64,000 bases of DNA. Origin: a virus. Of this stretch, positions 642-27,050 are shown one piece after another. The position numbers and the translations under genes were made by a program. The stretch lies in the IMG/VR virus record IMGVR_UViG_3300045988_174371, positions 128,001 to 192,000 of that record. One strand, given 5' to 3'. The stretch's first letter is position 1, and each line of letters begins with the position of its first letter. The notes beneath the pieces were generated by a model, which saw nothing but the letters and a program-made list of their open reading frames with translations, had not been told where the DNA came from and did not search any database.

Positions 642-707
642 GATAAACGCCCTTTCGGTAAGAGAGTGATTTCCGCCTTTCCGGTGCCTCCGGCGGCTTA
701 TATGAAT

Positions 708-737
708 ATCGTACCACAGAATTACCCCTCCACGCAA
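708..737 (-). promoter_or_regulatory. cassette-family promoter
   Basis: Minus-strand read: TTGCGT, 18 nt, (TGTGG)TACGAT. Confidence 0.55.
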
Positions 738-787
738 GCCGGTTTTGTATGTGCTGGCTCACATAGAGGGGTAACGGGCATGGCTCA

Positions 788-1183
788 CTACGAAAGCGGC
801 GACCCTGCGCGGTAAGGGAAGCGGGCAACTTCTACCGTGATAGATTCGCCGTCGGTTGAGATAGATTCGACCTCACCGACTGCATCGAAGTTTCGCATTG
901 CCCAAAATGCGACGTGCTGTTCGCTCTCCACGTCATACACGCTATCGTCAAGCTTTCCGTAGAGCATATCATTGTCGCCTTCTACAGGCTCTACAGCTGA
1001 GCCGTCGCCCATATAGAAGTAGAGTTCCAGGTTCTCAGTTCCGGGGAAACTGGGCTCAATATAGAGCTCTTCGTATTCGATACGCTCTACAAGCTCTTCC
1101 AGGTCTACGCCTTCAAGGTCAGGGGTGACGGTAAACGCAATGCTTTCACCAGGGGTAAAGGGCGAGGGCTTAAGTCCATACAT
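788..1183 (-). CDS. small acidic protein (131 aa)
   Basis: ORF trimmed to the ATG at 1183 behind GAAAGGA. The protein is D/E-rich. Confidence 0.6.
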   Translation of the reverse strand: MYGLKPSPFTPGESIAFTVTPDLEGVDLEELVERIEYEELYIEPSFPGTENLELYFYMGDGSAVEPVEGDNDMLYGKLDDSVYDVESEQHVAFWAMRNFDAVGEVESISTDGESITVEVARFPYRAGSPLS

Positions 1184-1290
1184 CGTTAGGTGTTCCTTTC
1201 GGGGGGGGGTGGGCAACTATTGTTTGGTGTTGCCGGTGGTGGGATAGGTTGCCGCGCGTCTAGGGGCGGGTTTCTCTCGGTGTGAGAGTT

Positions 1291-1329
1291 CCCCCTCACC
1301 CCGCCAAAAACACCGGCGGGGTGAGGGGG
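1291..1329 (-). terminator. hairpin terminator of 1342..1713
   Basis: ccccctcaccccgcc pairs with ggcggggtgaggggg (15-bp stem). Confidence 0.6.
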
Positions 1330-1341
1330 TGGGTAAGGGTG

Positions 1342-1713
1342 TTAGTTCATCTGTCCACGCTTTGCCTCCATGCCCTCGTTGAAAATCTTAATTTCGCTTG
1401 CTACCGCGTCCTGCCAGTACTTGATGTTCACATCGCGCTTGATGAGTTCTTCATCTGCGATACCTTCTTCCTTCTGCCATTCGCGGGACTCTTCGCGGTG
1501 CTCGATGCAGTCAGTTTCGTTGTATGCGAAGTTTTCGTATGCCTTATCCAGTGCGACTTCCTGCTCATTGGTCATGGAGCGCTGGTTCTTCTTGATGTAC
1601 TTGAAGACTTCGCTCTTTTCCTTCTGGGCGGCTTCGAGAATGGTCTTGAATGCCTTACGGATAGCACCGTGGGTCTTGAGGTCTGCAACATTGATAGTGG
1701 AAACGGTCTGCAT
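1342..1713 (-). CDS. hypothetical helical protein (123 aa)
   Basis: ATG at 1713 lies 9 nt after GAAAGG. The track ORF began at an upstream TTG. Confidence 0.65.
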   Translation of the reverse strand: MQTVSTINVADLKTHGAIRKAFKTILEAAQKEKSEVFKYIKKNQRSMTNEQEVALDKAYENFAYNETDCIEHREESREWQKEEGIADEELIKRDVNIKYWQDAVASEIKIFNEGMEAKRGQMN

Positions 1714-1743
1714 GATTGGCAACCTTTCGGTAGATGATTTACT

Positions 1744-1762
1744 GTAGCATTCCTTGGCTACA
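1744..1762 (-). promoter_or_regulatory. 5' leader stem-loop (short variant)
   Basis: TGTAGC-CAAGGAAT-GCTACA starts about 7 nt after the -10 element. Confidence 0.45.
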
Positions 1763-1767
1763 TTTAT

Positions 1768-1797
1768 AGTATGCCACAGATTCTATCATGCGTGCAA
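1768..1797 (-). promoter_or_regulatory. cassette-family promoter
   Basis: TTGCAC, 18 nt, (TGTGG)CATACT. Confidence 0.55.
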
Positions 1798-1874
1798 GTC
1801 GATACGGCATGGGGTGCATCACATGCTTAATTAGGGGAACATCTTTCATGGCATTTGCCTATGAGGTCACATAA

Positions 1875-2862: not shown

Positions 2863-2895
2863 GATGTGAACCTTTCGGTCGAGAGTGGGTATCTT

Positions 2896-2925
2896 TATAG
2901 CCTTCAGGGAGTTCCCCTCGCTACA
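2896..2925 (-). promoter_or_regulatory. 5' leader stem-loop
   Basis: Outer stem TGTAGC/GCTATA, inner stem AGGG/CCCT. Confidence 0.5.
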
Positions 2926-2930
2926 TTTCC

Positions 2931-2960
2931 AGTATGCCACAGATTAAGCCCACTACACAA
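2931..2960 (-). promoter_or_regulatory. cassette-family promoter
   Basis: TTGTGT, 18 nt, (TGTGG)CATACT. Confidence 0.55.
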
Positions 2961-3021
2961 CTCAGACTTGTGTTAAGTGAGTCACACAATAGAGCGCAAG
3001 TATAGCGCCCTAGCACAGGGC

Positions 3022-3390
3022 CTATTTCTCAACCTTCTTGAAAGATGCTCTAACCGCGTACATGAGAGCCACCATAAAGCAGGAAGCAATGGAGTTCAAG
3101 ACGAGTGAAGCAATTACTGCAATAACGATAGGGAACCCGCCGTTAATGCCAGCCCTAGTGCAAACGTCTGTGGTAAGACTGCCCAGGAAGCATAGCCAGA
3201 AAACATAGGTGAATAAGGTTATGATACTAGCCGCAGGTGCGTCATCATCATCTTCAAAGAACGCAATGAGGCAGTACAAGGCAAGCAGGATAGCGCCCGC
3301 AATAATGCCAGGGACGAAGAACAGCAGGAAGAGCGGAGCTTCGGCAAAGAACTTATACGGGTCGAGGGAATTGAAGAAATCAACAAGCAT
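3022..3390 (-). CDS. small polytopic membrane protein, paralogue 4 of 4 (122 aa)
   Basis: N-terminal motif DPYKFFAEAPLFLLFFVPG is shared with three upstream neighbours. About 4 hydrophobic helices. Confidence 0.65.
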   Translation of the reverse strand: MLVDFFNSLDPYKFFAEAPLFLLFFVPGIIAGAILLALYCLIAFFEDDDDAPAASIITLFTYVFWLCFLGSLTTDVCTRAGINGGFPIVIAVIASLVLNSIASCFMVALMYAVRASFKKVEK

Positions 3391-3432
3391 ATATGCTTCC
3401 TTTTACTAGTATTGAATCGGTGGCTTGCGTAG

Positions 3433-3843
3433 CTACTTACTCTCGCGGCTACCGCCTACCGCCTCTTGTACTTGGCTACTAGGGAACAGGAAGCCGCCTA
3501 CGCTAAACACTGCACGTGCCGCAATGAGTGCCGTAACCACATTGGAGATTGTGCCTACGGCAACCGCTAGAACCAGTGGGTATCCGTCCATGACACCTGC
3601 ACGCAAAAACACCTCAGTTAGAGTGCTTAGCATCCAAACGGTTCCACCAATGGTAGATAGAACGCCAAGCGCGAGTGTTAGCCCCTCAGCCGCCCCACTG
3701 CGACCAAGAACCACTCTAAGCAAAGCGTAGATGGCGGATAGGGTGATAATGTAGGTAATTCCAGGGGCAACGAATGACACCCACAGGGGCGCATCAATGA
3801 GGAACCTTACGGGGTCGAAGGCGTTAAACAAATCAATGAGCAA
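3433..3843 (-). CDS. small polytopic membrane protein, paralogue 3 (136 aa)
   Basis: TTG start behind GAAAGGA. Motif DAPLWVSFVAPG. Confidence 0.6.
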   Translation of the reverse strand: MLIDLFNAFDPVRFLIDAPLWVSFVAPGITYIITLSAIYALLRVVLGRSGAAEGLTLALGVLSTIGGTVWMLSTLTEVFLRAGVMDGYPLVLAVAVGTISNVVTALIAARAVFSVGGFLFPSSQVQEAVGGSRESK

Positions 3844-3864
3844 CGAGGTTTTTCCTTTCGGTAG

Positions 3865-4260
3865 TTAGTTATCCGTGGCGGCTTCTACCCTACGTAGAAG
3901 CTTTGGGATGTTGGTGAAGGTGATGGCGACTGTAAAGAATGTGAGAGGTAGGGCGGCAACATTGGTGACAATAGATAGTAGGTGCGGGACTACCCACGTT
4001 TCATCAATGAGCCCCTTAGATTGAAACACGGGAGGGAGGCTACAAAGTGTCGCAATGAGGGCGAAGAAAATAGCGATGCCTGCGAGCGCTTGCGCCCCGC
4101 TATCCTTGAAGTTATTGCTTTCGTTTGCGCCAGCAAATACGGCGCAAATAGCACAGAGCAGAATGCCTGCAACTACTCCAGGCGCGACAAACAACACCCA
4201 GAGAGGCGCGTCAGCGAATACATGCTGGAGCATATCGGCAATACTTGCGGTGAAGAGCAC
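3865..4260 (-). CDS. small polytopic membrane protein, paralogue 2 (131 aa)
   Basis: GTG start behind GAAAGGA. Motif DAPLWVLFVAPG. Confidence 0.6.
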   Translation of the reverse strand: MLFTASIADMLQHVFADAPLWVLFVAPGVVAGILLCAICAVFAGANESNNFKDSGAQALAGIAIFFALIATLCSLPPVFQSKGLIDETWVVPHLLSIVTNVAALPLTFFTVAITFTNIPKLLRRVEAATDN

Positions 4261-4286
4261 GTTAGGGGTTTCCTTTCTGTGGGTGG

Positions 4287-4649
4287 CTACTTATCGCTAG
4301 TAGCATCTACTTTGTGTAGTAGCTGGATGATGTGAGGGGCGGTCATCTCAAGTAGGGCGAATAGGGGGAGTGAAAGAACTAGGCTTGCAACGAGTACGCC
4401 CAGACTCATGTTTAGAACTTCTGTCCCTTCGAATCCCTTTTTCTCAAACACGCTAGGGGCAATTATGAGAACTGCCGCGATGCCTGGGATAAAGGTAAGT
4501 AGGCAAGCCACCTCCTCATCCATGACATTAGAAAGCCTGTAGCCAATTGAGATTAGGGCGGCGAACATGAACCCAGGGGCGATGAATACCATCCATGTAG
4601 GTGCGGTAACTAGCACCTGCGGAACTGCAATTGTTGCGACCGTGAGCAT
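4287..4649 (-). CDS. small polytopic membrane protein, paralogue 1 (120 aa)
   Basis: ATG behind GGAAAGGA. Motif APTWMVFIAPG. Confidence 0.6.
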   Translation of the reverse strand: MLTVATIAVPQVLVTAPTWMVFIAPGFMFAALISIGYRLSNVMDEEVACLLTFIPGIAAVLIIAPSVFEKKGFEGTEVLNMSLGVLVASLVLSLPLFALLEMTAPHIIQLLHKVDATSDK

Positions 4650-4768: not shown

Positions 4769-4829
4769 GGTGGCAAGCTCGAAGACTTCCTCTTACATTG
4801 CCTTGTGGCACACCTCACGCAAATCCAAC

Positions 4830-4859
4830 TTGCATACAGTTTTAAATCTGTGATAGACT
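4830..4859 (+). promoter_or_regulatory. cassette-family promoter (only plus-strand copy)
   Basis: TTGCAT (4830-4835), 18 nt, (TGTGA)TAGACT (4854-4859). Confidence 0.6.
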
Positions 4860-4927
4860 ATAGATATAAGGCGAGGGAATGAAGCCCTAGCTACTAAACC
4901 ACAAACCAACCGAAAGGTCTATCAATT

Positions 4928-5308
4928 ATGGGTCACATGCCTAACGGAATTGCTCTCGCTTTCCCCGATGACGAGCCCATTGTTTCCGAGTTCACCCCTG
5001 ATGCAATTGAGGGTGTTACCTTCCAGGAAATCCTCAAGGAAATTCAGGAAACCACCACCGAGTTAGCTATCGACACCCGAAGCGGCAGTGATGAACTGTT
5101 CCTCATGCCGCGAACCAGCGACGGTCCCGTCGAGATGGGCGGCAAGTTCATCATCGGCAAGGTGACCCTCCCCAATGAGGATAATAACTCTATTCTCCAG
5201 TTCGCCGCCAACTACATGGTGTTTGATTTCTCCCCTGAGATTGAGGAAAACCCCGACATTCCCGGTAGTATCCTGTTCACCGTAGACGCTCTCCGGTGGG
5301 GAATGTAA
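4928..5308 (+). CDS. small acidic protein (126 aa)
   Basis: ATG behind CCGAAAGG. It has its own promoter and a shared bidirectional terminator. Confidence 0.65.
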   Translation: MGHMPNGIALAFPDDEPIVSEFTPDAIEGVTFQEILKEIQETTTELAIDTRSGSDELFLMPRTSDGPVEMGGKFIIGKVTLPNEDNNSILQFAANYMVFDFSPEIEENPDIPGSILFTVDALRWGM

Positions 5309-5492: not shown

Positions 5493-6629
5493 CTACAGGT
5501 ACGGGAAAGGTTTGTACGTCTCATATTGCGGGTCGTCAGGCATTACCTGGAAATGGGTGGGCGCACAATCGCACCTATCGCGTTCTTCCTGCCTCCAGAT
5601 GGCTACTTCGCTCATGTGGTAGCGAACCTCAGATTCGCCGCCACATACAATGTAGCCGCCATCGTCAATTCTGGGGTATTCATCGAAGTGGTAGACATCC
5701 GTCATGTATTCATCTTTCGGGTTGCCAATCACCACTACAGTAAAGCCCAGCGTTCTGCCGGGCTCTGCGCAAATCTTGGGTAGAACCTCAAGCTTATTGA
5801 TGGTGTGGACGCACTGGTTTCCGCCCAGCAGGGGGTAGTAAGCCCCAAAGCTGAGCTTGCCGCCATCAACCATGATGACACCCTCTTTGCCATTAGGGAG
5901 CTTGACGTTGATACCACTAGCGCCTGCGGCTGAGTCTACCACCACGTCCACGTCGGCTATGGGTGCGCCTGCAAGGGCTAGGCGCACACGCTCACCCTTA
6001 TGGAAGCCTATAAGCAGGTTATTGTTGGTGGGGTTGGTGAGCTTGAGGAAGTTGCGCTGTTCGCGAGGTTGCTTTGAATGGTATGCCTTTGAAACTTGGT
6101 TCATCATTAGGTGCTGAAGGCTTCCAATGATTCCAGTAAGCGCGGCAGTCGCCTTTTCAGAACCAAGGTTACAGACTTCGCTAGTTTGAGCTCTGTTGAT
6201 GATGTGGTTGAGCTGTTCCTTGGATAGTTCGTGTGGCTCGCGGGCGGCGATACGGCAGAGTGCTGAGATGTCCGTTGCCGTAAAGTCGATACCTTCAAGA
6301 TGCTTCATGATGTCGTTGAGGGCACAAGCAACGCTTTTGTCGTGCTCATACGTCGCTTGGGTGGCGCTGAACACTGTCTCCCACTTAAAAGCAGGCACAC
6401 CATCGCCTAGCGCGTCGCCAGACATTGCTACCGGGTATTCCCAGACTGAGCCGCCCAGCTCCCAGGTAATTCGCTTACCATCTACGGGCTTCGTGGTGAC
6501 ATACCTCATGTCGCCGTCAATGTCTCGATACTCTACGTCGTATTCTTCGTAGGTTGGTGAGTTTTTACGGCGGGCAACGAACATGGCGCAGGGGCTTGTG
6601 AGCAGGTGGTTTTCGTTGAGTGCAAGCAT
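5493..6629 (-). CDS. hypothetical protein (378 aa)
   Basis: Long ORF with ATG behind AGAAAGAAAC. Promoter at 6682-6711. Confidence 0.65.
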   Translation of the reverse strand: MLALNENHLLTSPCAMFVARRKNSPTYEEYDVEYRDIDGDMRYVTTKPVDGKRITWELGGSVWEYPVAMSGDALGDGVPAFKWETVFSATQATYEHDKSVACALNDIMKHLEGIDFTATDISALCRIAAREPHELSKEQLNHIINRAQTSEVCNLGSEKATAALTGIIGSLQHLMMNQVSKAYHSKQPREQRNFLKLTNPTNNNLLIGFHKGERVRLALAGAPIADVDVVVDSAAGASGINVKLPNGKEGVIMVDGGKLSFGAYYPLLGGNQCVHTINKLEVLPKICAEPGRTLGFTVVVIGNPKDEYMTDVYHFDEYPRIDDGGYIVCGGESEVRYHMSEVAIWRQEERDRCDCAPTHFQVMPDDPQYETYKPFPYL

Positions 6630-6681
6630 TGATTACGGGTTTCTTTCTGTAGCTGTTTGCGTAACGTAACGGTCGCATTCA

Positions 6682-6711
6682 AGTGTAGCACAGATTAGTG
6701 GTAGTGCAGTG
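6682..6711 (-). promoter_or_regulatory. cassette-family promoter (weak -35)
   Basis: AATCTGTGC-TACACT. Confidence 0.45.
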
Positions 6712-7864: not shown

Positions 7865-7936
7865 GCGGGGTTCCTTTCAAGAGTGTGAGCGGTACCCAGC
7901 AATGATGCGTGGGCGCTCTGATGCTCATATGACTCC

Positions 7937-8394: not shown

Positions 8395-8430
8395 GATTGA
8401 TAACCTTTCGGTTGATGGGAAACTGTGGCT

Positions 8431-8466
8431 TATAGCTTTGCGGAAGTTTTCCTCTTCCTCGCTACA
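8431..8466 (-). promoter_or_regulatory. 5' leader stem-loop
   Basis: Outer stem TGTAGC/GCTATA, inner stem GGAAG/CTTCC. Confidence 0.5.
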
Positions 8467-8471
8467 TTTAT

Positions 8472-8501
8472 AGTCTAACACATATTTCAAACTGTATGCA
8501 A
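8472..8501 (-). promoter_or_regulatory. cassette-family promoter
   Basis: TTGCAT, 18 nt, (TGTGT)TAGACT. Confidence 0.6.
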
Positions 8502-8577
8502 GTCGATTTGTGGTGAGGTGTGTCACATTGCCCGCAGCCCTTCTTCCCTGCCTGCATGGTACCAATAGCGTAGGCGC

Positions 8578-9611: not shown

Positions 9612-9638
9612 GAGCACAGCCCTTTCGGTTGGGTAAAG

Positions 9639-9670
9639 CTTGAGGGGCGGCAAAACAGCCGCCCCTCAAG
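9639..9670 (-). terminator. terminator-like hairpin inside the leader of 8691..9611
   Basis: 13-bp stem cttgaggggcggc/gccgcccctcaag. It lies between the promoter (9727-9756) and the RBS. Confidence 0.5.
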
Positions 9671-9726
9671 GGATTTAATGTATGCAGGTGAGGCGCTTAT
9701 GCGGGGAGCCACAACCTTACGTGTTC

Positions 9727-9756
9727 ACTATATCACACCGCTTGGCAGGTGTTCAA
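9727..9756 (-). promoter_or_regulatory. cassette-family promoter
   Basis: TTGAAC, 18 nt, (TGTGA)TATAGT. Confidence 0.55.
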
Positions 9757-11724: not shown

Positions 11725-11757
11725 GATTCGCGCCTTTCGACTGATGAGGTAACTGCT

Positions 11758-11792
11758 TGTAGCTTCTTTCTGGAGTGTATCCCCTCGCTACA
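11758..11792 (-). promoter_or_regulatory. 5' leader stem-loop
   Basis: Outer stem TGTAGC/GCTACA, inner stem GGGG/CUCC. Confidence 0.5.
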
Positions 11793-11797
11793 TTTAT

Positions 11798-11827
11798 AGT
11801 CTAGCACAGATTTAACCCCCTATACAA
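11798..11827 (-). promoter_or_regulatory. cassette-family promoter
   Basis: TTGTAT, 18 nt, (TGTGC)TAGACT. Confidence 0.6.
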
Positions 11828-11894
11828 CTCAGTTTCGCATTAAGCGAGTTGCATAGGGGGTGTCGTATGCGGAGGGGACACGGCATCCACCGTC

Positions 11895-12988: not shown

Positions 12989-13044
12989 GTCTAGAACCTT
13001 TCGGCAGGTAGTCATTGCGGGTATGGTATTTACTAAACATTTAC

Positions 13045-13074
13045 AGTGTATCACATATTTCTAGAGGGTGTCAG
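13045..13074 (-). promoter_or_regulatory. cassette-family promoter
   Basis: CTGACA, 18 nt, (TGTGA)TACACT. Confidence 0.55.
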
Positions 13075-14312: not shown

Positions 14313-14388
14313 GAGTAAGACCTTTCAGTAGATTTGAAGCTTGAATGAGTGGCTGGCGTGCCATGTACCCCACTCATGTTATATACAT

Positions 14389-14418
14389 AGTGTATCACAT
14401 ATTATGGATTTACGGCTT
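14389..14418 (-). promoter_or_regulatory. cassette-family promoter (weak -35)
   Basis: AATATGTGA-TACACT. Confidence 0.45.
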
Positions 14419-15326: not shown

Positions 15327-15358
15327 GCTAGACAGCCTTTCGGTAGCGGTAGATGGTG

Positions 15359-15398
15359 TGTAGCTTTTTCTTTGGAAGCTTTTCTCTTCCTTGCTACA
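15359..15398 (-). promoter_or_regulatory. 5' leader stem-loop
   Basis: Outer stem TGTAGC/GCTACA, inner stem GGAAG/CTTCC. Confidence 0.5.
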
Positions 15399-15403
15399 TT
15401 TAT

Positions 15404-15433
15404 AGTCTAACACATATTTCGGAACGTGTGCAA
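15404..15433 (-). promoter_or_regulatory. cassette-family promoter
   Basis: TTGCAC, 18 nt, (TGTGT)TAGACT. Confidence 0.6.
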
Positions 15434-15533
15434 GTCGAATATGTGTGAAGTGAAACACAGGGCTATTGCGCCTATCTACAGCAGGCGGCAAAGCATCCAT
15501 AGGGCTAGGTAACCCGCCAGGCAAAATGAGCAT

Positions 15534-15995: not shown

Positions 15996-16027
15996 TAGAT
16001 GCTCCTTGCATGTTTAGAGAAACTGTC

Positions 16028-16063
16028 TGTAGCTTTTCTCTGGAAGCTCTCTTCCTCGCTACA
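16028..16063 (-). promoter_or_regulatory. 5' leader stem-loop
   Basis: Sequence identical to the 18422-18457 copy. Confidence 0.5.
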
Positions 16064-16068
16064 CTTAC

Positions 16069-16098
16069 AGTCTAACACATATTTCAGACAGTACGCAA
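16069..16098 (-). promoter_or_regulatory. cassette-family promoter
   Basis: TTGCGT, 18 nt, (TGTGT)TAGACT. Confidence 0.6.
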
Positions 16099-16130
16099 GC
16101 CGAATATGTGTTAAGTGGGACACAAAGACG

Positions 16131-17525: not shown

Positions 17526-17574
17526 AATGGGGGTACACCCTTTTCTGGAAATCATAGTAGTAAATAATAGGTCT

Positions 17575-17604
17575 AGTGTACCACATTATCGGCGGCAGGC
17601 AGGG
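17575..17604 (-). promoter_or_regulatory. cassette-family promoter (weak -35)
   Basis: AATGTGG-TACACT. Confidence 0.4.
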
Positions 17605-18388: not shown

Positions 18389-18421
18389 GATGGCAACCTT
18401 TCGGTCTAGGGAGAAACGGTC

Positions 18422-18457
18422 TGTAGCTTTTCTCTGGAAGCTCTCTTCCTCGCTACA
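18422..18457 (-). promoter_or_regulatory. 5' leader stem-loop
   Basis: Outer stem TGTAGC/GCTACA, inner GGAAG-AGAG-CTTCC. Confidence 0.5.
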
Positions 18458-18462
18458 TTTAT

Positions 18463-18492
18463 AGTCTAACACATATTTCAGACCGTCTGCAA
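18463..18492 (-). promoter_or_regulatory. cassette-family promoter
   Basis: TTGCAG, 18 nt, (TGTGT)TAGACT. Confidence 0.6.
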
Positions 18493-18776
18493 ATCGAATA
18501 TGGGTGAAGTACATCACATCCCATCAATGCACCCCACCCACACCTCATGACAGTAAAGGGCAAGAGCGCTACCCTAGCGCTCGCAAACCTATACAGCAAG
18601 GTAAGCAACCAGTAGTCACTGTAAGCCAGCGGCTCGCTACGGCAACTAACCTGCGGATAGCAAGCGCCCGCCATGCCGCCCAATAACCATTCCTGCACAC
18701 ATAAGCAAAGCGGGCGGGCAATCAGTGGAACACTCCATCTGATTACCCGCCCGGCTATTACCAAGCGCGTTACATG

Positions 18777-19163: not shown

Positions 19164-19219
19164 GAAAAGCTCCTTAGGTGAACAAGCGGGCGATAGTACC
19201 CAAAAACGATTACACGTAT

Positions 19220-19249
19220 AGTCTAGCACATATTTCAGACCGTATGCAA
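19220..19249 (-). promoter_or_regulatory. cassette-family promoter
   Basis: TTGCAT, 18 nt, (TGTGC)TAGACT. Confidence 0.6.
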
Positions 19250-19500
19250 GTCGAATAGGGGTGAGGTGGGACACACTCGTATTCTATCCGCACATGGCGC
19301 TCGCATATAGCCGCCGCACACACGCGCTCACATGTCCCTCACCAGCAACCGGAAGCACCTCAATAAGCCACCCCTTAGCTCACGCGATAGTAGCCGCCGC
19401 GCAGGTAAGCCACCCTACACTCCAGCCATTGCGCATATTGCACAGCTGGACATAAAAGAGAGGGGGTAGAGGCTTGTGACACCCCTACCCCTCAATGGGA

Positions 19501-19902: not shown

Positions 19903-19935
19903 TGCAGGCAACCTTTCGGTAGTAAGTAAATGGTC

Positions 19936-19968
19936 TGTAGCTCTTCCAGAGGCTCCCCTCTCGCTACA
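19936..19968 (-). promoter_or_regulatory. 5' leader stem-loop (covarying inner stem)
   Basis: Outer stem TGTAGC/GCTACA. Inner stem AGAGG/CCTCT replaces GGAAG/CTTCC. Confidence 0.5.
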
Positions 19969-19973
19969 CTTAT

Positions 19974-20003
19974 AGTCTATCACAGATTTTAAATGCCATA
20001 TAA
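19974..20003 (-). promoter_or_regulatory. cassette-family promoter
   Basis: TTATAT, 18 nt, (TGTGA)TAGACT. Confidence 0.5.
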
Positions 20004-20228
20004 GCTGAATATGTGTGAGGTGAGACACATGGCGGCTAATCAGTTGCCCGCCAGGTGGCACTCACCCAATCAAGAGTAAGAAGAACGCAAGCATCACTAC
20101 CAGCATACCCAGTAGCAACCACCCCAGAATTAGCGCTCGCAAACCACCCACTAAACAGCCACAGCCAGCCCAGCGAACAGCACCCACAGACACACACTCA
20201 CAGGTCACATAGAGACACAAGGTAGACA

Positions 20229-20280: not shown

Positions 20281-20294
20281 CAGAGCACTTCACT

Positions 20295-20693: not shown

Positions 20694-20761
20694 TGTGCAA
20701 CTCCTCAAATCCTCAAACATGCGTATTAGCTTTGCGGGGAACATCCCCGATTGAACAATTT

Positions 20762-20791
20762 AATTATACCACAGATTCAGACAGGGGCGCA
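20762..20791 (-). promoter_or_regulatory. cassette-family promoter
   Basis: TTGCGC, 18 nt, (TGTGG)TATAAT. Confidence 0.6.
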
Positions 20792-21010
20792 AGCTATAGT
20801 GTGTGGCTTGCCCCAACAGAAACAAAAGATGGGCATGGGCGCCCTTCAAGCACTCACACCCATCACCACATTTAGCGAAGCAACCAACAAGCAACCACCA
20901 CTAAGACATAGCCACCCAAGAGAGCGCTCGCCATCAACTACAAGAGGAGTCACCCAAACCTAGTAGCCGGAGGCTCCCATACGCTACCCCATAGGCGGCA
21001 AACCTCACCC

Positions 21011-22090
21011 CTAGATAGTGAACCCCAGCTCACGATAGAAGCCCACCAACTGCTCACGCAACCACCGAACATACCCGACACTCTTCTCAATATCGAACAG
21101 CAGGTCAGCAGTAGCCGCCATCAGCACACCACGACACCTAGCATAATCATCAGCCCAACAGTAACGGTTACCATCAAGTTCCTCACGAGCAGGCAGGCAC
21201 TCAGGCTTACCCTCACCAGCACAGAACATGTCAAGGAAAATCTCTTGCAACGCATCAGGAAGAGAAACACCCTCATACTTGCTCGACTCAAGGTAAGAGT
21301 CAATATCCTCAAAAGAGCTAACAGGTAGAAGCTTCACAGTATCCGCATCAATCCAAAGGTCATCGTCACCAACCATAACCCGCAGATAAACACAGCCCCT
21401 GTCAGTATCATAAATAAGCCCCTCACGGTCACTCACACCACCAGAGCCACCATAAAGAACAACCCCAGTCTTATGCTTATTATCAACAACCTTAAAATAG
21501 CCATGCCCCTCATATTTACGCTGGAACTGATAGATACCACCAACTACAAGCTTAACACCAGCCCACTTGCGGTACTCACGGTACTCGTCCAAATCAGGCT
21601 CAACCCAAGACCTGTCCTGATACTTCAACCAGCCCGCGTAAAAATCCTCAAAAGCCCGCAGACACTCCATACGCTTACCCTCAACCCACGCGCTCGCCTC
21701 AACCAAAGAAGCCTCAACCTCACCCAGCCACCTAACAACAGCATCAACAGGCTCACGGTCAGTTAGTGACAACGCACCCACGCCCTTTGGGTAAGCAAAC
21801 CTACTCAAAGCCCTAGCACTATCACCCGGCGAAAACACAGCCGCACTCAAACGCTTTAGGCGACTCTCACGGTTAAACCACACCAACGCCTCAGCGTCAG
21901 ACGCATCAACCCCCAAGGGAACAACACCAGCCGAAACAGGGACACCCACACGTACCTCACCATCACCAGCAACACCAGACACAGCGAAAGACTCACCCTC
22001 ACGCGAACGCTCCACAATAACCGACTCCACATGCAGAACACCCACAGCGGTAGACACAACATCACCAGGAGAAACAGACACAACAGACAT
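21011..22090 (-). CDS. mosaic-family protein, skew-zone member (359 aa)
   Basis: Same length as 13233..14312. Shared blocks: WFNRESRLK, AWVEGKRMECLRAFED, GGIYQF, VKLLPVSSFEDIDSYL. The rest is strongly G/V/A/S-enriched. Confidence 0.7.
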   Translation of the reverse strand: MSVVSVSPGDVVSTAVGVLHVESVIVERSREGESFAVSGVAGDGEVRVGVPVSAGVVPLGVDASDAEALVWFNRESRLKRLSAAVFSPGDSARALSRFAYPKGVGALSLTDREPVDAVVRWLGEVEASLVEASAWVEGKRMECLRAFEDFYAGWLKYQDRSWVEPDLDEYREYRKWAGVKLVVGGIYQFQRKYEGHGYFKVVDNKHKTGVVLYGGSGGVSDREGLIYDTDRGCVYLRVMVGDDDLWIDADTVKLLPVSSFEDIDSYLESSKYEGVSLPDALQEIFLDMFCAGEGKPECLPAREELDGNRYCWADDYARCRGVLMAATADLLFDIEKSVGYVRWLREQLVGFYRELGFTI

Positions 22091-22289
22091 AACGAAAAAC
22101 CTCTTTCAAAAACTCAACAAGACAAGCAGGCAGAACACCCACCCACAGAACACAGAACGCAGGGCGCTCGCACAGACATAAGGCGCTCACCAAAGCAAGC
22201 ACCCACCCACCTAAGCAAGCAGACAGGTAGGAAAAAGGAAGGACGGAAACCCCTAATAGGAACCCGCCACTCCCGCAAGACACCACTAA

Positions 22290-22424
22290 CTAACCAAACA
22301 CGCGCTCACGCGCATAAGATACCACCTCTTCCACAGCGTTCAAAATCTCCAGAGCCAGCGCCTCATCATCCTTAGCAACAACCTCAGCCCAATCAGAGGC
22401 AAAAGAAGACGCAAGGTCACGCAA
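22290..22424 (-). CDS. possible small ORF (44 aa, TTG start)
   Basis: Hand translation gives MRDLASSFASDWAEVVAKDDEALALEILNAVEEVVSYARERVFG. It abuts the stop of 22426..22635 and is below the track cutoff. Confidence 0.3.
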   Translation of the reverse strand: MRDLASSFASDWAEVVAKDDEALALEILNAVEEVVSYARERVFG

Positions 22425-22425
22425 C

Positions 22426-22635
22426 TCAGCCTATCGCCCTAGACAAGTCATACACCTTCTTGTCCAGCGCGATAGGCTGAGCGGACGTAGCGCTCGCATC
22501 AAACGCCGCCAAATCCAAAACAGCCGCCTTCACGAAACTACCAGTGCCAAACAAGGCACCAACCTCAGACAAAGAATATACCAACAAAGCGTAAGTGTTC
22601 TTAGCCTTAACCTGAGTCTCAACACTAAAAGCCAT
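22426..22635 (-). CDS. small protein (69 aa)
   Basis: Trimmed to the ATG at 22635 behind GGAGGG. Confidence 0.5.
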   Translation of the reverse strand: MAFSVETQVKAKNTYALLVYSLSEVGALFGTGSFVKAAVLDLAAFDASATSAQPIALDKKVYDLSRAIG

Positions 22636-22711
22636 AACTAACAATCCCTCCAAAGGAACAAAATAAGAAACGACAGCAGGTAACGATTACCCACCAGATG
22701 ATTACCCTATA

Positions 22712-22741
22712 ACTATACCACAGAAAACAGGTGGTGTACAG
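22712..22741 (-). promoter_or_regulatory. cassette-family promoter (weak -35)
   Basis: TTTCTGTGG-TATAGT. Confidence 0.45.
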
Positions 22742-22935
22742 ACCGTCCACCAATACCACACCAGAAACAGAGACCCACGCCCCAACAACAGGGACACATA
22801 GACGAATAGACGATAGGAATAACAACCACACCCCATGAACCATCCACAGAAGGCAACTCACCACCCCCACACCCGACCATCAACCCACCAAAACGCGCTC
22901 GCACCCACACCACAACCCCAAAAACAACCCCTAGA

Positions 22936-22950
22936 GGTTGATTTTCAACC
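22936..22950. repeat. palindrome GGTTGA-TTT-TCAACC (copy 1)
   Basis: Perfect 6-bp arms. It is a G/T-containing island in otherwise A/C-only sequence. Confidence 0.8.
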
Positions 22951-23182
22951 CCTAAAAACAGAAACTTGCACCAAAGTGCATAACGCACTGACAAGGACAA
23001 ACATTGCCTTCCCCCACATACCGAAACACCCCGAAACCCACCCCACACCAAACACACCCCGCACCACCCCCAAAAACCCCGAAAAACAGCCATATGCACC
23101 CCGCACCAGCCCACCCAGGCACCCAAAACGCCGACACAGACCCCAAAACAGCACTAAACCCACCCCAAAAACAACCCCTAGA

Positions 23183-23197
23183 GGTTGATTTTCAACC
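23183..23197. repeat. palindrome GGTTGA-TTT-TCAACC (copy 2)
   Basis: Identical to copy 1, 247 bp downstream. Confidence 0.8.
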
Positions 23198-23305
23198 CAC
23201 AAACAGCCACCCACCCCGAAAAACACAAAACGCACCGACAAGGGCAAACATTACCCTCCCCCACATACCCAAACACCCCGAAACCCACCCCGCACCAAAC
23301 ACACC

Positions 23306-23346
23306 GAAAAGAAAACGAAAAAAGGAGAGCGGAAAAGAAAAAAGAA
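23306..23346 (+). other. polypurine tract (39 of 41 nt purine)
   Basis: gaaaagaaaacgaaaaaaggagagcggaaaagaaaaaagaa. Confidence 0.8.
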
Positions 23347-23399
23347 CACCCCACCGCGTGAGCAACGTGACCCGCACCACACCCGGCACCCCGCCCACC

Positions 23400-23575
23400 A
23401 CCTCGCCGCCTACCACTACCCATCCCTACACTTACCACCTCTAGCCCTACTGCCCTACTACTACCCGTATCCCCGTGCATCATTATGTTACCCGTCTAGT
23501 TAGTTAGTGTCCCTACCGTCCCTCTAGCTTGTTGGTGTATCTAGCCTTATCCCTTTGCCTTTACCTTTATTGCTT
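23400..23575. other. pyrimidine-rich switch tract with CCCTAC x4 and CTAG x4
   Basis: CCCTAC at 23424, 23445, 23453 and 23511. CTAG at 23441, 23496, 23524 and 23541. Composition changes A/C, then C/T, then G/T. Confidence 0.75.
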
Positions 23576-24129
23576 GGTGTGTGGTTCCCCTTGTTTCTAG
23601 CTTGTGTGTCTCTTATGGTGGTGTGTCTGTGTGTTGTCTCTGTTGTGCCTCTCTCTTTCTCTCTGTATGTGGTCTGTTGGTTACTGCGTTCTTCTGTCTT
23701 GGGTGTGTGTGTTCCTGGTGTCTTTCTTCTATGTGTGTCTCTGCGTGTGCCGTGTATGTCTTATGTGTCTTGTTTGTCTGTGTTGGTTGGTATTGTTGCC
23801 CTGGGTGTCTGTGTCTGCTTTCTTTGCTGGGTGTGTTCCTGGTGTTTAGCTTGTTGGTGGTCTGTGTGTCTCTTGTGTCTGTGTCTTAGGTCTGTGTTAG
23901 TGTGTTTTGTTTTTCTTCTTTTCTGTTTTTCTTTTGTGTTGTTGTGTGTGAGCCCAGGTTCTGTGTGTGGTTCTGGGTTTGTGGCGGTTTGTTTTTGGGG
24001 GTTTGCTTGGGTGGGCTGGGGTTTGGGGTTGTTGGTTTTTGGGTTTGGGGTGGGGGTTTTGTTTTGTGGGGTGGTTGTTGGTGGTGTTGTTTTTTTGGGG
24101 GTGTTCTGGGTGGGTGGTGGTTTGTGGGC

Positions 24130-24135
24130 TATACT
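24130..24135 (+). promoter_or_regulatory. possible -10 (TATACT) for the Gly/Val-rich ORF
   Basis: The only four A residues in 24061-24213 are at 24131, 24133 and 24139 (in or beside TATACT) and at 24171 (in GGAG). Confidence 0.35.
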
Positions 24136-24179
24136 GTTATTGTTGTTCTTGTTGTTGTTTTTCTGTTTGGAGTGTGGTT

Positions 24180-25889
24180 TTGGTGGTTGTTGGGCGTGGT
24201 GTTGTTGTTGGTGAGGGTGTTTCTTTTTCGTCTTCTGGTGTTGGGGGGTTGTTGTCTTCTGGTGTGTCTGGGTCGGTGTGTGGTGTTTGGGTTCCTGGTG
24301 GTGTTGGTGTTGATGTGGTGTCTTCTGGTGTGTTTGCGGGTTTGTTGGGTGCTGGTGGTGTGGGTGCTTCTTCTTTGGGGGGTGGGGTTGGTGTGTCTGT
24401 TGGTTGGGGTTCTGGTTCGGGGTTTGTGGATGGTGGGGGTTTTGGGTCTGTTGGTGTTGGTGGTGGGTTTGTTGAGGGGTTTTGGGGTTCTGGTTCGGGG
24501 TTTGTGGAGCCTTCACCTGTGGGTGCGGGTGTTGGTGGTGTGCCTGTGGCGGAGGGTGTGCCTTCTTTGGGGTCTGACGGGGCTTCTGCGGGGGTTTTAG
24601 ATGTTTCTGGTATGGTTTTGCCTTCTTCTGGTTTTGGTGGCTCTGAGGGGCGTTTTGGGGTTGTGGGTGGTTCTGGTGTGAGGTTTGGTTCGTCGCCTGG
24701 GTTTGGTGGTTCTTTTGGTGGGGTTGATGGGTTGTTGGGGGTGTTGGGGTGTTCGCCTGTGGGGTTCTTTCCTGTGTCGGGGGTGTGTGGTGTTGGCGGT
24801 GTTGTGGATGGTGGTTGGGTTGGTGGTGTTGATTTTTCGGGGGTTGGTGTGTCTGGGTTTGGGGGTGTTGGGGTTGGGTCTGGTGATTTTGTGGGTGGTT
24901 CTGGTGTGAGTGTTTCTGTGCCGTGGTTGGTGTCTGGTTTGTCGGGGTTGGATGTTTTGGGGTCTGTGGGGTTTGGTGTGTCTGGGTTTGGGGTTGGTGT
25001 GTCTGCCGTGGTTGGTGTGTTTGGTTTGCCGGTGGGGGTTGGTGTGTCTGATGTTGGTGGGTTGGGTGGTTGGTGGGGGTTGTCGTCTGCTGGGTTGGGT
25101 GTTTTGGGTGGTGGGGGTTTTGGGTCTGGTTTGGGGCGTGTTTTGGGGGTTGGCGGTTTGGGTTCTGGTGGTTTTGTGCCTGGTGTTTCGGGGTTGGGTG
25201 ATGGTGGTGGGGTTGTTGGGTCTGGTGTTGGGGCTGTGGTTGATGTGGATGGGTGGTTGTGGCGTTCGCTTGTTTTTGGGGCGGGGTTGGTTCCTGCTGG
25301 GTTTGAGGGTGTTTCTGGGGTTGGTGTTGGTGCTGTTGGTGGTGTGTCTGGTGGTGCTGTTGAGGGTGGCTTGTGTGGTGTGGGTGGTGTTTCTGGTGTT
25401 TTTGGTGGTGGGGCTGTTTATGGTGGGTGTCCTGTTGGGTTGAGGGTTGGTGTTTTGGGTTCTGCTGGGTCTGTGGGTGATGTGGTTGATGGTTTGTCTG
25501 GTGTTGGTGGTGTTTTGGGGTTGAGGGGTGTTTGTCCGGTGTTTGGGCGTGTTGCTGGGTTGGGGTCTGGTGTGTTGTGGGAGTTGTTGCGTGGTGGTTT
25601 GGTTGGTGTTTTGGGTTCTGTTGGTGGGCGTGTTTTGTCTGGTGTGGTTGGTTCGGTGTTGTCTGGGCGTGGTGGTGTTGATGGTGGTTTGGGTTTGGGG
25701 TTTGTGGCTGGTAGTGAGGGGTTTGGTTCGCCGGTGGGTGAGGTTGTTGGTGGTGGTGGTTCTGCTGGGTTGCTTGGTCGTTCTGGTTGGGGTGGTGTTT
25801 GTGGTGGTTGGGTTGATGTGCCGGTTGGTTCGCCGGTGTTGGGGTTGGGTGTTTCGGTGAGTGAGGTGGTGGCTGTTTTGGGTGGGTAG
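24180..25889 (+). CDS. possible Gly/Val/Ser/Leu-rich low-complexity protein (about 569 aa; start uncertain)
   Basis: Frame open for 1.9 kb. It shows codon phase (G-rich position 1, T-rich position 3) and the rare A sits mostly in GAT/GAG codons. GGAG at 24169-24172 lies 7-10 nt before TTG 24180 or GTG 24183. A hairpin follows the stop. Caveat: A-poor DNA is stop-poor in every frame. Confidence 0.4.
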   Translation: MVVVGRGVVVGEGVSFSSSGVGGLLSSGVSGSVCGVWVPGGVGVDVVSSGVFAGLLGAGGVGASSLGGGVGVSVGWGSGSGFVDGGGFGSVGVGGGFVEGFWGSGSGFVEPSPVGAGVGGVPVAEGVPSLGSDGASAGVLDVSGMVLPSSGFGGSEGRFGVVGGSGVRFGSSPGFGGSFGGVDGLLGVLGCSPVGFFPVSGVCGVGGVVDGGWVGGVDFSGVGVSGFGGVGVGSGDFVGGSGVSVSVPWLVSGLSGLDVLGSVGFGVSGFGVGVSAVVGVFGLPVGVGVSDVGGLGGWWGLSSAGLGVLGGGGFGSGLGRVLGVGGLGSGGFVPGVSGLGDGGGVVGSGVGAVVDVDGWLWRSLVFGAGLVPAGFEGVSGVGVGAVGGVSGGAVEGGLCGVGGVSGVFGGGAVYGGCPVGLRVGVLGSAGSVGDVVDGLSGVGGVLGLRGVCPVFGRVAGLGSGVLWELLRGGLVGVLGSVGGRVLSGVVGSVLSGRGGVDGGLGLGFVAGSEGFGSPVGEVVGGGGSAGLLGRSGWGGVCGGWVDVPVGSPVLGLGVSVSEVVAVLGG

Positions 25890-25908
25890 TGTGTTGTGGG
25901 TGGTGTAG

Positions 25909-25963
25909 GAAGAAGGAGCCTCTGGTTTCCCGTGTTTGTGCGGGTTGCCAGGGGCTCCTTCTT
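25909..25963. terminator. bidirectional hairpin between convergent ORFs
   Basis: gaagaaggagcctctgg pairs with ccaggggctccttctt. Confidence 0.55.
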
Positions 25964-25978
25964 GTGTTTGGGGGGGGG

Positions 25979-26803
25979 TTATTCTTCGTAGTCGGGGTGG
26001 TTGGTGATGGTGTTGATGTGGTGGTGGGTTTGGTTGGCTAGGTTGGTGTGTCCTTCTTTGGTTGCGATGTCGTGTACGGTGGTGAGGTAGTCTTTGGTGC
26101 GCCAGAGGATTTCGCTGTCGGATACCCAGTGCATTTCGCCTTCGATTGCGTAGTAGTCGGAGATGTTTTGCCAGAGGGAGGTTAGTTCTTCTTCGAGGGT
26201 TTCTTGGTGTTTGGGGTTGTTTAGGAGGGTGTGGTATTCGGGGTGGGTGAGGGTTTCGTGGAGTGCTAGTGCGGTTTCGGGGGTGAGGGGTGCGGTTTCG
26301 CTTTCGGGGATGTTGAAGGTTTCGGGTAGGGGGTTGGTGTAGGTGAGGGTTGCGTTGAGGACTGCCCAGATGTTGTAGCCGTCTAGGAGGGTGGTGTATT
26401 CGTTGGGTTCGTCGGGGATTGCGCGGGTTGCGTCTCCGTTGAGGGTGTGGGCGATGCTGATGTCGTGGTAGTGTTCGGTGCTGTGCCAGATGGTGATGTC
26501 GCCGTCGTTTTCGATGGCATAGTAGATGGGGGTGGGGGTGTCTTTGCGGGTGCCGATGTTTACGGCTTTGAGCTCTTCGAGGTCGGGGGTGGTGAGTTGT
26601 CCGTTGGTGCGGGTGATGTTGATGGTGTGGGGTGCGTTGAAGCTTGCATGGCGGAGGGTTGCGGTGGCGTGGTTGGTGTCGGTTACCTGGTCGATGGCGT
26701 AGATTGCCATGCGGTCGTCGGTCTCTTCGTTGGTGGGGGTGAAGAGGATTCCGTCGTTGGTGTTGAGGGTTTCCCAGTAGAGGAAGGGGGTGATGGTTCG
26801 CAT
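25979..26803 (-). CDS. hypothetical T/N/H/P/E-rich protein (274 aa)
   Basis: ATG behind GAAAGAGAG. Promoter at 26907-26936. It is encoded on the A/C-rich strand. Confidence 0.6.
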   Translation of the reverse strand: MRTITPFLYWETLNTNDGILFTPTNEETDDRMAIYAIDQVTDTNHATATLRHASFNAPHTINITRTNGQLTTPDLEELKAVNIGTRKDTPTPIYYAIENDGDITIWHSTEHYHDISIAHTLNGDATRAIPDEPNEYTTLLDGYNIWAVLNATLTYTNPLPETFNIPESETAPLTPETALALHETLTHPEYHTLLNNPKHQETLEEELTSLWQNISDYYAIEGEMHWVSDSEILWRTKDYLTTVHDIATKEGHTNLANQTHHHINTITNHPDYEE

Positions 26804-26906
26804 TGTTGGTGCTCTCTTTCTGTGTTTAATGATTGGGGGGTAAGCCTTGTGGGGCTTGTTGGGTTAGGTGGTGGGTTGAGGTTTTCTCTCAACTCCTTAT
26901 GTTTAG

Positions 26907-26936
26907 ATTGTACCACATATTTGTGATGTATGCACC
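26907..26936 (-). promoter_or_regulatory. cassette-family promoter
   Basis: GTGCAT, 17 nt, (TGTGG)TACAAT. Confidence 0.5.
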
Positions 26937-27050
26937 TTATGGGGTGTGTTTTAGCTCTCTCTTCTATAGGGGGGGGTGGGGCTTTGCTTCTGCGGTGGCA
27001 TGGTGTAGTGTTGGTGGTGTTATTTCCTTTTGTTTTTGGAGGTTTTCCTG

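Follow-up and report, generated by a model that had tools for sequence, protein, structure and literature searches.

A repeated promoter-like cassette before the orphan genes of a giant element from the human oral metagenome

The orphan-gene array and its upstream cassette

The stretch of DNA considered here, 64,000 nucleotides of the IMG/VR record IMGVR_UViG_3300045988_174371 (hereafter the window), is the reverse of a part of the 360,715-bp contig ERZ989713 k127_64826 from the human oral metagenome, with a G+C content of 52%. All coordinates are positions in the window, and the DNA examined amounts to about 84 kb of this ~360-kb contig, namely the window and 10 kb on either side. The first 27 kb of the window are occupied by an array of genes before which one and the same cassette recurs. 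The genes behind the cassette are mostly small orphans, mostly not paralogous to each other, with many small and acidic products; searches of Pfam and PHROG assigned a function to none of them, one family matching PHROGs of unknown function.

A full copy of the cassette measures about 120 bases and is composed, in the order of the coding strand, of an upstream box, a -35 element, a spacer, a -10 element, an AT-rich stretch, a leader hairpin, a ribosome site and the ATG. The upstream box has the form TGTGN-N6-TCACN (more finely TGTG-n-c-n-CAC-y-TCAC-n) and a sharp 5′ edge, before which the information content is near zero. It is followed by ATTCGA and by the -35 CTTGCAT (consensus TTGCAT); the 18-nt spacer terminates in AAAT(A/C)TGTGn and is followed by the -10 TAnACT, after which come an AT-rich ATA and the sequence T-purine-T-A where the start of transcription would be expected. 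The leader stem-loop is of type I, with GTAGC..GCTAC around a variable inner stem, or of type II, with GGC..GCC around a G/C inner stem, and the predicted 5′ end of the transcript lies at the stem-loop or within a few bases of it. From the hairpin about 20 nt lead to (A)CCGAAAGG(T), the GAAAGG ribosome site, and a further ~8 nt to the ATG. Most cassettes are preceded, directly after the previous gene, by long GC-rich terminator-like hairpins that are unrelated in sequence. With such a hairpin after most genes, the array would consist of one-gene units insulated from each other, in the succession promoter, leader, gene, terminator-like hairpin.

The reference copy (18389..18518, minus strand) precedes the gene at 18041-18388 and contains the upstream box (18503-18518), the -35 TTGCAG (18487-18492), TGTGT (18469-18473), the -10 TAGACT (18463-18468), a predicted start near 18456, the leader hairpin (18420-18459), GAAAGG (18397-18402) and the ATG (18386-18388). 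It matches the scoring matrix described below, gives the best match to the hairpin model (50.7 bits) and carries breakpoints at 18454 and 18510.

Repeat finding recovered 10-11 copies in register, with a unit of 25-100 nt, spanning 699-26923. The repeat families D5, D12, D13, D15 and D18 mark the unit at 699, 1759, 2922, 8463, 11789, 13037, 14381, 15395, 16060, 18454, 19211, 19965, 20755 and 26899, and a single inverted copy lies at 4845. The degenerate 15-mer AGTNTANCACANATT, with up to 2 mismatches, has 19 matches against 4.3 ± 2.0 expected, a number reached by none of 100 shuffles, and the minus strand has 18 occurrences of TGTGnTAnnnT, where 2.0 ± 1.4 are expected and the highest count in 200 shuffles was 7. 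When a 40-nt scoring matrix, derived from 46 clusters of promoters of the element family (window and relatives), was applied with a threshold of 12 bits, 16 sites were obtained, 15 on the minus strand and one on the plus strand, and none in 10 shuffles. All 16 fall within 718-26917, each followed after 55-104 nt by a same-strand start codon, and three weaker sites (6692, 17585, 9737) score under the threshold. The promoter unit reused before gene starts, as proposed in a preliminary description of this DNA, is therefore real; many copies are indeed present, but their tally over the same interval is 16-19 and not the "at least 20" given there.

On the coding strand, window 1-27000 contains 16 strict sites and 27001-64000 none, with 6 more in the left 10-kb flank and none in the right, which makes 22 in 37 kb of array (window 1-27 kb plus the 10 kb to its left) versus 0 in 47 kb of backbone. 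The enrichment upstream of genes, expected earlier for the replicon as a whole, thus holds for the orphan array and its left flank and not for the backbone. In relatives of the element, 7-13 cassette sites lie on the coding strand versus 0-1 on the opposite one.

A TTGnnn -35 with a spacer of exactly 18 nt is found in 12 copies (718, 1778, 2941, 4849 on the plus strand, 8482, 11808, 15414, 16079, 18473, 19230, 20773 and 19984, the last one degenerate), and in 14 of the 19 copies of the window if 13055 (CTGACA, 18 nt) and 26917 (GTGCAT, 17 nt) are included. Sites 6692, 14399 and 17585 consist of the extended -10 half only, and 9737 and 22722 are generic; the invariable 18-nt spacing put forward earlier was too strong a claim. 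The near-identity over more than 100 bp attributed to the copies at 8472, 15404, 16069, 18463, 19220 and 19974 was overstated, since these six share 56-78% over 137 nt; 90% over 100 nt is reached only between 16069 and 18463 (repeat family D13), and the leader of copy 19220 is unrelated to those of the others. On the other hand, the spurious peptide KYVLDYKCSEEE shared by several open frames is, as had been suggested, the cassette read in frame: it is the translation of AAATATGTGTTAGACTATAAATGTAGCGAGGAAGAG, present at 18478 and 8487 and in variant forms at 15419 and 19235.

Apart from the reference, and on the minus strand unless otherwise indicated, full cassettes with a type I hairpin are located at 15996..16124 before the gene at 15603-15995 (family D13, matrix and hairpin model), at 15327..15459 before 14931-15326 (matrix and hairpin model; breakpoint at 15459) and at 8395..8527 before 8068-8394 (matrix and hairpin model). 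The copy at 19903..20029 (gene 19501-19902; matrix and hairpin model) is also full, with a degenerate -35 TTATAT and an inner stem AGAGG/CCTCT, and the one at 19164..19275 (gene 18777-19163; matrix; breakpoint at 19211) joins upstream box and promoter to a different leader that lacks the GTAGC hairpin. Type I hairpins are found again at 11725..11853 (gene 11401-11724; matrix and hairpin model), with a -35 TTGTAT and an inner stem GGGG/CTCC, and at 2863..2986 (gene 2569-2862; matrix and hairpin model), with a -10 CATACT; the same -10 is present at 1714..1823 (gene 1342-1713; matrix and hairpin model), where only the outer hairpin stem is retained. A diverged cassette with the -10 TACGAT and a GCC..GGC hairpin lies at 642..763 (gene 162-641; matrix). 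The sole plus-strand cassette (4804..4927; matrix) has a type II hairpin, AAGGC.., and the gene downstream of it, a 126-aa gene on the opposite strand to the others (4928-5308), is retained in relatives. The copy at 20694..20818 (gene 20295-20693; matrix) has a -35 TTGCGC, a -10 TATAAT and a hairpin CGGGGA/TCCCCG, while at 22636..22741 (gene 22426-22635; matrix) a generic extended -10 promoter, TGTGGTATAGT, is combined with a leader hairpin.

Half cassettes, all three recognized by the matrix, are found at 12989..13074 (gene 12215-12988; CTGACA, 18 nt and AAATATGTGATACACT, no hairpin), at 14313..14418 (gene 13233-14312; AATATGTGATACACT with no fixed -35 and its own hairpin ATGAGTGG/CCACTCAT, identified also by alignment of orthologous upstream regions) and at 26804..26936 (gene 25979-26803; GTGCAT, 17 nt, AAATATGTGGTACAAT and a hairpin GTTGAG/CTCAAC with z = -4.1). 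Weak copies under the matrix threshold are those at 6630..6711 (gene 5493-6629; TAATCTGTGCTACACT only) and 17526..17604 (gene 16257-17525; ATAATGTGGTACACT). The site at 9612..9756 (TTGAAC, 18 nt, TGTGATATAGT) is doubtful: between the putative promoter 9737 and the ribosome site of the gene at 8691-9611 there is a strong hairpin (9640-9700) that resembles a terminator, with CCCTTGAGGGGCGGC..GCCGCCCCTCAAG and then TTT, so that either 9737 would not be the promoter of this gene or its leader would be attenuated.

The promoter core and the leader hairpin

Over the 46 promoter clusters, TTG at the -35 with the 18-nt spacer is conserved in 72-80% and AAA before T(A/C)TGTG in 72-85%; in the -10, T reaches 93%, A 91% and C 76%. 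None of these -35, spacer and -10 positions was imposed by the search, and neither was the T-R-T conserved at the expected start. Across the family, conservation of the spacer is limited to AAAT(A/C) beside TGTG, the remainder being kept within subfamilies only, and the additional factor that the preliminary description had suggested on account of the conserved spacer is therefore not required. A TRTG-extended -10, a TTGnnn at 16-18 nt and a same-strand position before gene starts are all present, that is, every sequence feature of an extended -10 promoter of the primary-sigma type, as had been proposed, with its actinobacterial character only hinted at. From these features we infer promoter activity, the start site and the sigma factor involved: most likely, the -35/18-nt/extended -10 unit would be read by the RNA polymerase holoenzyme with the primary sigma factor of the host.

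The cassette pattern was also scanned against 185,579 representative species genomes, which gave 14 single matches, all like ordinary TTGACA-N18-TGTGnTATACT promoters of unrelated bacteria, mostly Clostridia/Bacillota and Chloroflexi and in no case Actinobacteria. The cassette itself was found in none of these genomes, and neither a host nor an isolate emerged from them. A promoter of sequence TTGACAAAAATGGACAATCTGTGCTATACT precedes the same gene in three of the matched genomes, unrelated Bacillota (L016, L017, L019), and illustrates that the core of the cassette is a normal strong promoter form elsewhere.

Compared with dinucleotide shuffles, the first 45 nt downstream of the -10 have the better folds (over 38 leader clusters, mean z = -1.61, t = -7.4). 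A covariance model of the type I hairpin has 69 matches, all 69 on the coding strand, with 95.3% of cells paired. Changes on both sides of a pair affect 19 cells against 8.9 ± 2.1 in shuffles (none of 500 reaching 19) and involve three of the five inner-stem pairs, and 28 cells are G-U, which on the opposite strand would give A-C mismatches. The compensatory changes together with the G-U cells point to the type I leader hairpin being an RNA structure, one that would act in RNA rather than in DNA. The covariance model was needed because RNAalifold, run on a MAFFT alignment in which the inner stems were misaligned, returned the outer stem only. Searches of the whole window with Rfam 15 gave no match at gathering score, for the leader or elsewhere, and a tRNA scan was empty. 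In one relative, the same gene is preceded by a non-homologous promoter and leader that still consist of TGTGGTATAAT, a hairpin and CGAAAGG.

In Escherichia coli ompA and Bacillus subtilis aprE, stem-loops at the 5′ end of the transcript stabilise the mRNA. The leaders described here are similar in having a hairpin a few nucleotides from the predicted transcript 5′ end and then a strong ribosome-binding site; unlike them, ompA and aprE are single genes with measured half-lives, while the role proposed for the cassette hairpin, which would probably shield the mRNA from end-dependent RNases, is deduced from its position, its covariation and its G-U pairs.

Gene turnover at cassettes and the proposed role of the module

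Between the window and its relatives (loci L042-L043 and L051-L057) the gene content around one anchor gene is mosaic, with differences of whole genes. In L042, six extra genes (2.96 kb) are found between two cassette copies, at window 18454/18510. The gene at 15603-15995 is absent from L043 and four other loci (L051, L053, L054, L055), with the breakpoint at 16025 and the junction inside a chimeric cassette, which in L043 (at 12309) corresponds to the 16079 copy up to the -10 and to the 15414 copy from +1. The gene at 18777-19163 is replaced in relatives, with ends at 19211 and 18510; L057 lacks 20797-22746, the cuts coinciding with the 5′ edges of two promoters (22747/20796); and an extra cassette-plus-gene unit in L042 and L057 adjoins the 11808 copy at 11872. 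As a whole, 12 of 46 unique alignment ends lie in cassettes, which represent 11.6% of the span (p = 0.005). Since the crossover points vary within the cassette, homologous or microhomology-mediated exchange, rather than a site-specific system, fits these data. The recent cassette duplication considered in the preliminary description is borne out in the form of recombination, as indicated by the subfamilies, the chimeric cassette of a relative and the gains and losses of genes bounded by cassettes.

The explanation preferred here, with a probability of about 0.7, is that the cassettes are portable modules of primary-sigma promoter, leader and ribosome site which also serve as recombination junctions in a hyperplastic array of orphan genes. 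Each copy would by itself provide for the expression of one small accessory gene, with a strong extended -10 promoter of the primary-sigma type, a hairpin at the 5′ end of the transcript and a consensus ribosome site. Because the modules are 60-90% identical although the genes that they drive are unrelated, such related and reusable units would act as substrates and boundaries of recombination, through which orphan genes would be added, deleted or replaced between related elements. The leader hairpin, the terminator-like hairpin after most genes, the restriction to the orphan array and the role at recombination junctions go beyond what had been described before.

A number of observations weigh against this explanation or temper it. 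A generic sigma-70 scan is blind to the cassettes (11 sites against 16.4 expected), because each hexamer alone matches the consensus at only 4 of 6 positions. The conservation exceeds the known needs of a primary-sigma promoter (AAAT, ACT, ATA..TRTA) and, together with the upstream box, is left without explanation; moreover, the copies share descent, so that their conservation cannot be counted as separate evidence that they function. The same shared ancestry tempers the hairpin result, as does the fact that the covariation alignment was fitted by a model; single leaders have modest z-scores, and in several family promoters the leader is short and lacks a hairpin. As regards recombination, many alignment ends lie at gene boundaries outside cassettes, and the L057 junction has no long homology, therefore not every event was a homologous crossover.

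A possible addition to the portable-module explanation, proposed here with reserve, is that the copies constitute one regulon: a DNA-binding regulator encoded by the element would recognize the upstream box TGTGN-N6-TCACN and/or the partly palindromic arms CACATATT..AATATGTG around the -35, and the strong promoters, either repressed in the established cell or activated, would let the orphan genes fire together after entry. The box stands at a fixed position in 22 of 66 promoter representatives (relative to the extended -10, TGTG at -45 and TCAC at -34), with its sharp 5′ edge and a high information content over 37 clusters, and its shape is like that of CRP/FNR-type sites; unlike in a CRP-type site, however, its middle (CAC) is conserved as much as its ends, and it is missing from about two thirds of the family promoters. 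Two backbone promoters (39654-39693 and 52197-52237) carry TAGCACA/TGTGCTA inverted repeats on the same core, and repressor-controlled repeated promoters before variable establishment genes are known from Bacillus conjugative plasmids (PMC8708921). An operator palindrome around the -35 was rejected, no covariation being detected beyond consensus: the arms have 5.56 of 9 complementary positions, against 5.41 when arms of different cassettes are paired instead, and the A/C variant shows no covariation with its partner. In the 84 kb examined, no gene for a regulator was found. It is unlikely that a sigma factor or RNA polymerase of the element, in place of the host primary sigma, reads the conserved 25-nt core AAAT(A/C)TGTGnTAnACTaTannTRTA. 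Large phages often carry their own transcription machinery, two relatives of 307 and 319 kb are listed in IMG/VR as viral contigs, and the core is conserved beyond the known needs of a primary-sigma promoter; nevertheless, a correctly spaced TTGnnn is present in 72-80% of the clusters, in unrelated bacteria the exact pattern is that of ordinary promoters, TGTGCTAGACT is also used by DnaB and other backbone genes, and no gene for a sigma factor or polymerase was seen in the 84 kb.

The other two alternatives concern transfer and mobility. The array might be the leading region of a giant conjugative element, its repeats acting as single-strand promoters or priming sites during transfer, an option as improbable as an own sigma factor. 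Examples are known of leading regions with an abundance of anti-defence genes (PMC11541004); the genes of the array share one direction, leading away from the short repeats and the switch in composition at ~22.8-23.9 kb, many of their products are small and acidic, and the backbone holds a weak PrgI-like match beside an AAA_10 ATPase, a T2SSE ATPase, a ParA-like protein, SSB and large M23 and lysozyme proteins. Yet the -35 and -10 are in an ordinary double-stranded arrangement and not on opposite arms of a long hairpin, the hairpin is downstream of the -10 with G-U pairs that fit RNA, neither a relaxase nor a transfer origin was identified, and no match to a known anti-defence family was obtained. 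Far less probable still is an integron-like system, in which a dedicated site-specific recombinase would move gene cassettes with the repeats as its sites. Small, unrelated genes on the same strand are separated by a repeated element bearing a hairpin, and relatives differ by insertions and deletions of gene size, but the junctions vary within the cassette (between -10 and +1, in the upstream box, at the 5′ edge), every gene has its own promoter, the GTTRRRY core is not conserved (GTTAGAC appears only where the variable base is T) and no integrase was found in the window and the 10 kb on either side. The integron reading was therefore rejected, as was that of a miniature inverted-repeat transposable element (MITE), in view of the lack of a fixed core, of terminal inverted repeats and of an integrase.

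Among known systems, the closest to the portable modules proposed here appear to be the promoter-early stem-loop (PeSL) cassettes of T4-type phages, in which a terminator stem-loop is located upstream of a sigma-70-like promoter that is AT-rich before the -35 (PMC2839356, PMC4122927). Four features are common to both: many copies of one strong sigma-70-like promoter, a stem-loop associated with it, flanking of small orphan genes as insulated one-gene units in the hyperplastic regions where the copies are concentrated, and insertions, deletions and replacements between related genomes that end at the motif (here 18454/18510, 16025/15459, 19211, 22747/20796 and 11872). The conserved stem-loop of PeSL is a terminator before the promoter, whereas here it is downstream, in the transcript leader, and the unit includes a ribosome-binding site and a GC-containing upstream box, at which homology starts sharply; the terminators are separate hairpins unrelated in sequence, and the carrier is an oral element of ~360 kb with type IV secretion-like genes instead of a T4-like phage. 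T4 and other large lytic phages have dozens of near-consensus early promoters for the host sigma factor, with conserved bases beyond the hexamers. These too drive small genes of unknown function, but their definition comes from transcripts mapped in a known host, and they have no shared leader and ribosome site. In conjugative plasmids belonging to the pLS20 family, the establishment-gene regulatory sequences EGeRS1 and EGeRS2 are repeats that precede the ribosome sites of variable, mosaic accessory units (PMC8708921). The likeness lies in a conserved regulatory sequence directly upstream of ribosome-binding sites, in several transcription units with variable mosaic accessory genes and, for the p576 type, in repeats that are strong promoters. 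In contrast to the cassette, EGeRS1 is 400-750 bp long, rich in inverted repeats and devoid of a strong sigma-A promoter, EGeRS2 needs a ribbon-helix-helix repressor, and pLS20 has five operons, compared with at least 20 one-gene units here, where neither a known establishment gene nor a repressor or relaxase was identified.

A much bolder proposal, speculative and rather improbable, would make the cassette the shared unit by which a very large pool of orphan genes is controlled and exchanged. These genes might serve anti-defence or establishment, and the pool would sit on an undescribed family of elements of ~300-370 kb that is frequent in the human oral cavity. The upstream box would then be the operator of an element-encoded regulator, the whole array would be expressed in a single burst when the element enters a new cell, and the cassettes would actively promote exchange between co-resident elements, for example as excised circles. 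Independently of this proposal, the portable modules provide a testable handle on a family of giant elements that has nearly all its genes unknown and is present in many oral samples, with contigs up to ~369 kb. They would flag genes that are independently, and probably strongly, expressed; they define the variable accessory compartment of the element and show how this compartment turns over. The concept of mobile regulatory cassettes that shuffle orphan genes, until now described in T4-type phages, is thereby extended to an unrelated element whose host is probably Gram-positive, with a different architecture that unites promoter, leader hairpin and ribosome site, and such a compact module could become an expression part once the host is known.

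The carrier element and other features of the locus

Relatives of the element were found in other oral samples on contigs of 111-369 kb. Searches for near-identity of window 1-24 kb, 8-20 kb and 40-64 kb in phage and plasmid collections returned nothing, as did a search of viral contigs for relatives with a 432-aa protein of the array. The "Inocle" giant oral element was rejected as an identity for the carrier, given its G+C content of 24-32% (PMC12340149) versus 52% here.

The backbone (32-64 kb and beyond) encodes DnaB, SSB, a DEAD-box helicase, an SbcC-like and a ParA-like protein, a T2SSE ATPase, an AAA_10 ATPase, the weak PrgI-like protein and large M23 and lysozyme proteins. The PrgI-like match adjoins the AAA_10 ATPase and has an E-value of 1.6e-4, below the Pfam cut-off. 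The T2SSE secretion ATPase, a 581-aa ParA/AAA_31 protein, the AAA_10 ATPase and the PrgI-like protein form a cluster (32430-38116) whose composition points to a module for type IV secretion or a pilus of the Gram-positive kind; the element itself is entered as viral in IMG/VR. Plasmid matches to DnaB and to the AAA_10 ATPase share less than 28% identity, therefore no host was identified from them; all SSB homologues are metagenomic, and the TnpB insertion sequence of a relative, considered as a host clue, had no plasmid match. A Pfam scan of the large proteins of the two IMG/VR loci found only a kinase-phosphatase. No T4 core gene was seen in the 84 kb, which hold secretion-ATPase-like, PrgI-like, SSB, DnaB and M23 genes instead, and the element may be a conjugative megaplasmid or a very large phage.

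The M23 peptidase domain has its best matches in plasmids of Corynebacterium, Rhodococcus and Streptomyces and in actinophages, and the TTGC-type -35, the 18-nt spacing and the TAGACT of the cassette presumably fit the consensus promoters of Streptomyces and mycobacteria. Together they give a weak hint of an actinobacterial host. The actinobacterial assignment made earlier thus keeps a slight lean from the M23 matches, but the matches of the pattern in other genomes belong mostly to Clostridia/Bacillota and Chloroflexi.

Within the array, a TnpB-type gene (Cas12f1-like_TNB, 531-534 aa) is inserted in two relatives at different places (L042 15760-17355 and L054 13910-15514) and is absent from the window; insertion sequences are active in the element family. 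Four tandem paralogous genes for small membrane proteins (3022-4649; 120-136 aa, 31-36% identical) are 21-42 nt apart, have no cassettes of their own and form an operon within the array. Two further families of paralogues are located at 6917-11054 and at 12215-14312 with 21011-22090. The first has three members (315, 306 and 422 aa), of which the 306-aa protein weakly matches bactofilin and the 422-aa protein matches PHROGs of unknown function; the three members of the second (257, 359 and 359 aa) have the N-terminus M..SPRDV/I in common.

The octamer GCGAGCGC is present 14 times in the window against 2.1 expected, with 10 copies on the minus strand (16186-22902). The latter occur mostly once per intergenic region, 70-150 nt upstream of the cassettes at 16-23 kb, and T-rich or G-rich bases often precede the octamer (ggtttGCGAGCGCta).

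The head of the cassette array (22830-23400) contains a spaced duplication of 247 bp (22915-23058 versus 23162-23305, 91-95% identical) and many short C/A-rich repeats such as CCCCGAAACCCACC, which could be an origin of replication or transfer. They lie beside a switch in the sign of base composition near 23.5 kb, which is the minimum of the cumulative GC skew. From 23900 to 32000 the plus strand is nearly pure G + T, to an extreme degree at 24000-26000 (GC skew 0.71, AT skew -0.88). It contains a 640-aa open frame rich in Gly, Val and Ser with a hydrophobic N-terminus (23967-25889, plus strand), the frame that gene callers pick in relatives, and the other strand of this region reads as rich in Thr, Pro, His, Gln, Asn and Lys.

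Finally, two palindromes of the backbone set the TGTGCTA core of the cassette back to back, a perfect one of 40 bp, AATGATAGCACACCAGATAC/GTATCTGGTGTGCTATCATT, at 39654-39693 upstream of the gene at 38986-39627, and a 15-nt inverted repeat, CAAGTCTAGCACATG..CATGTGCTAGATTTG, at 52197-52237 upstream of DnaB; both look like operators overlapping backbone promoters.

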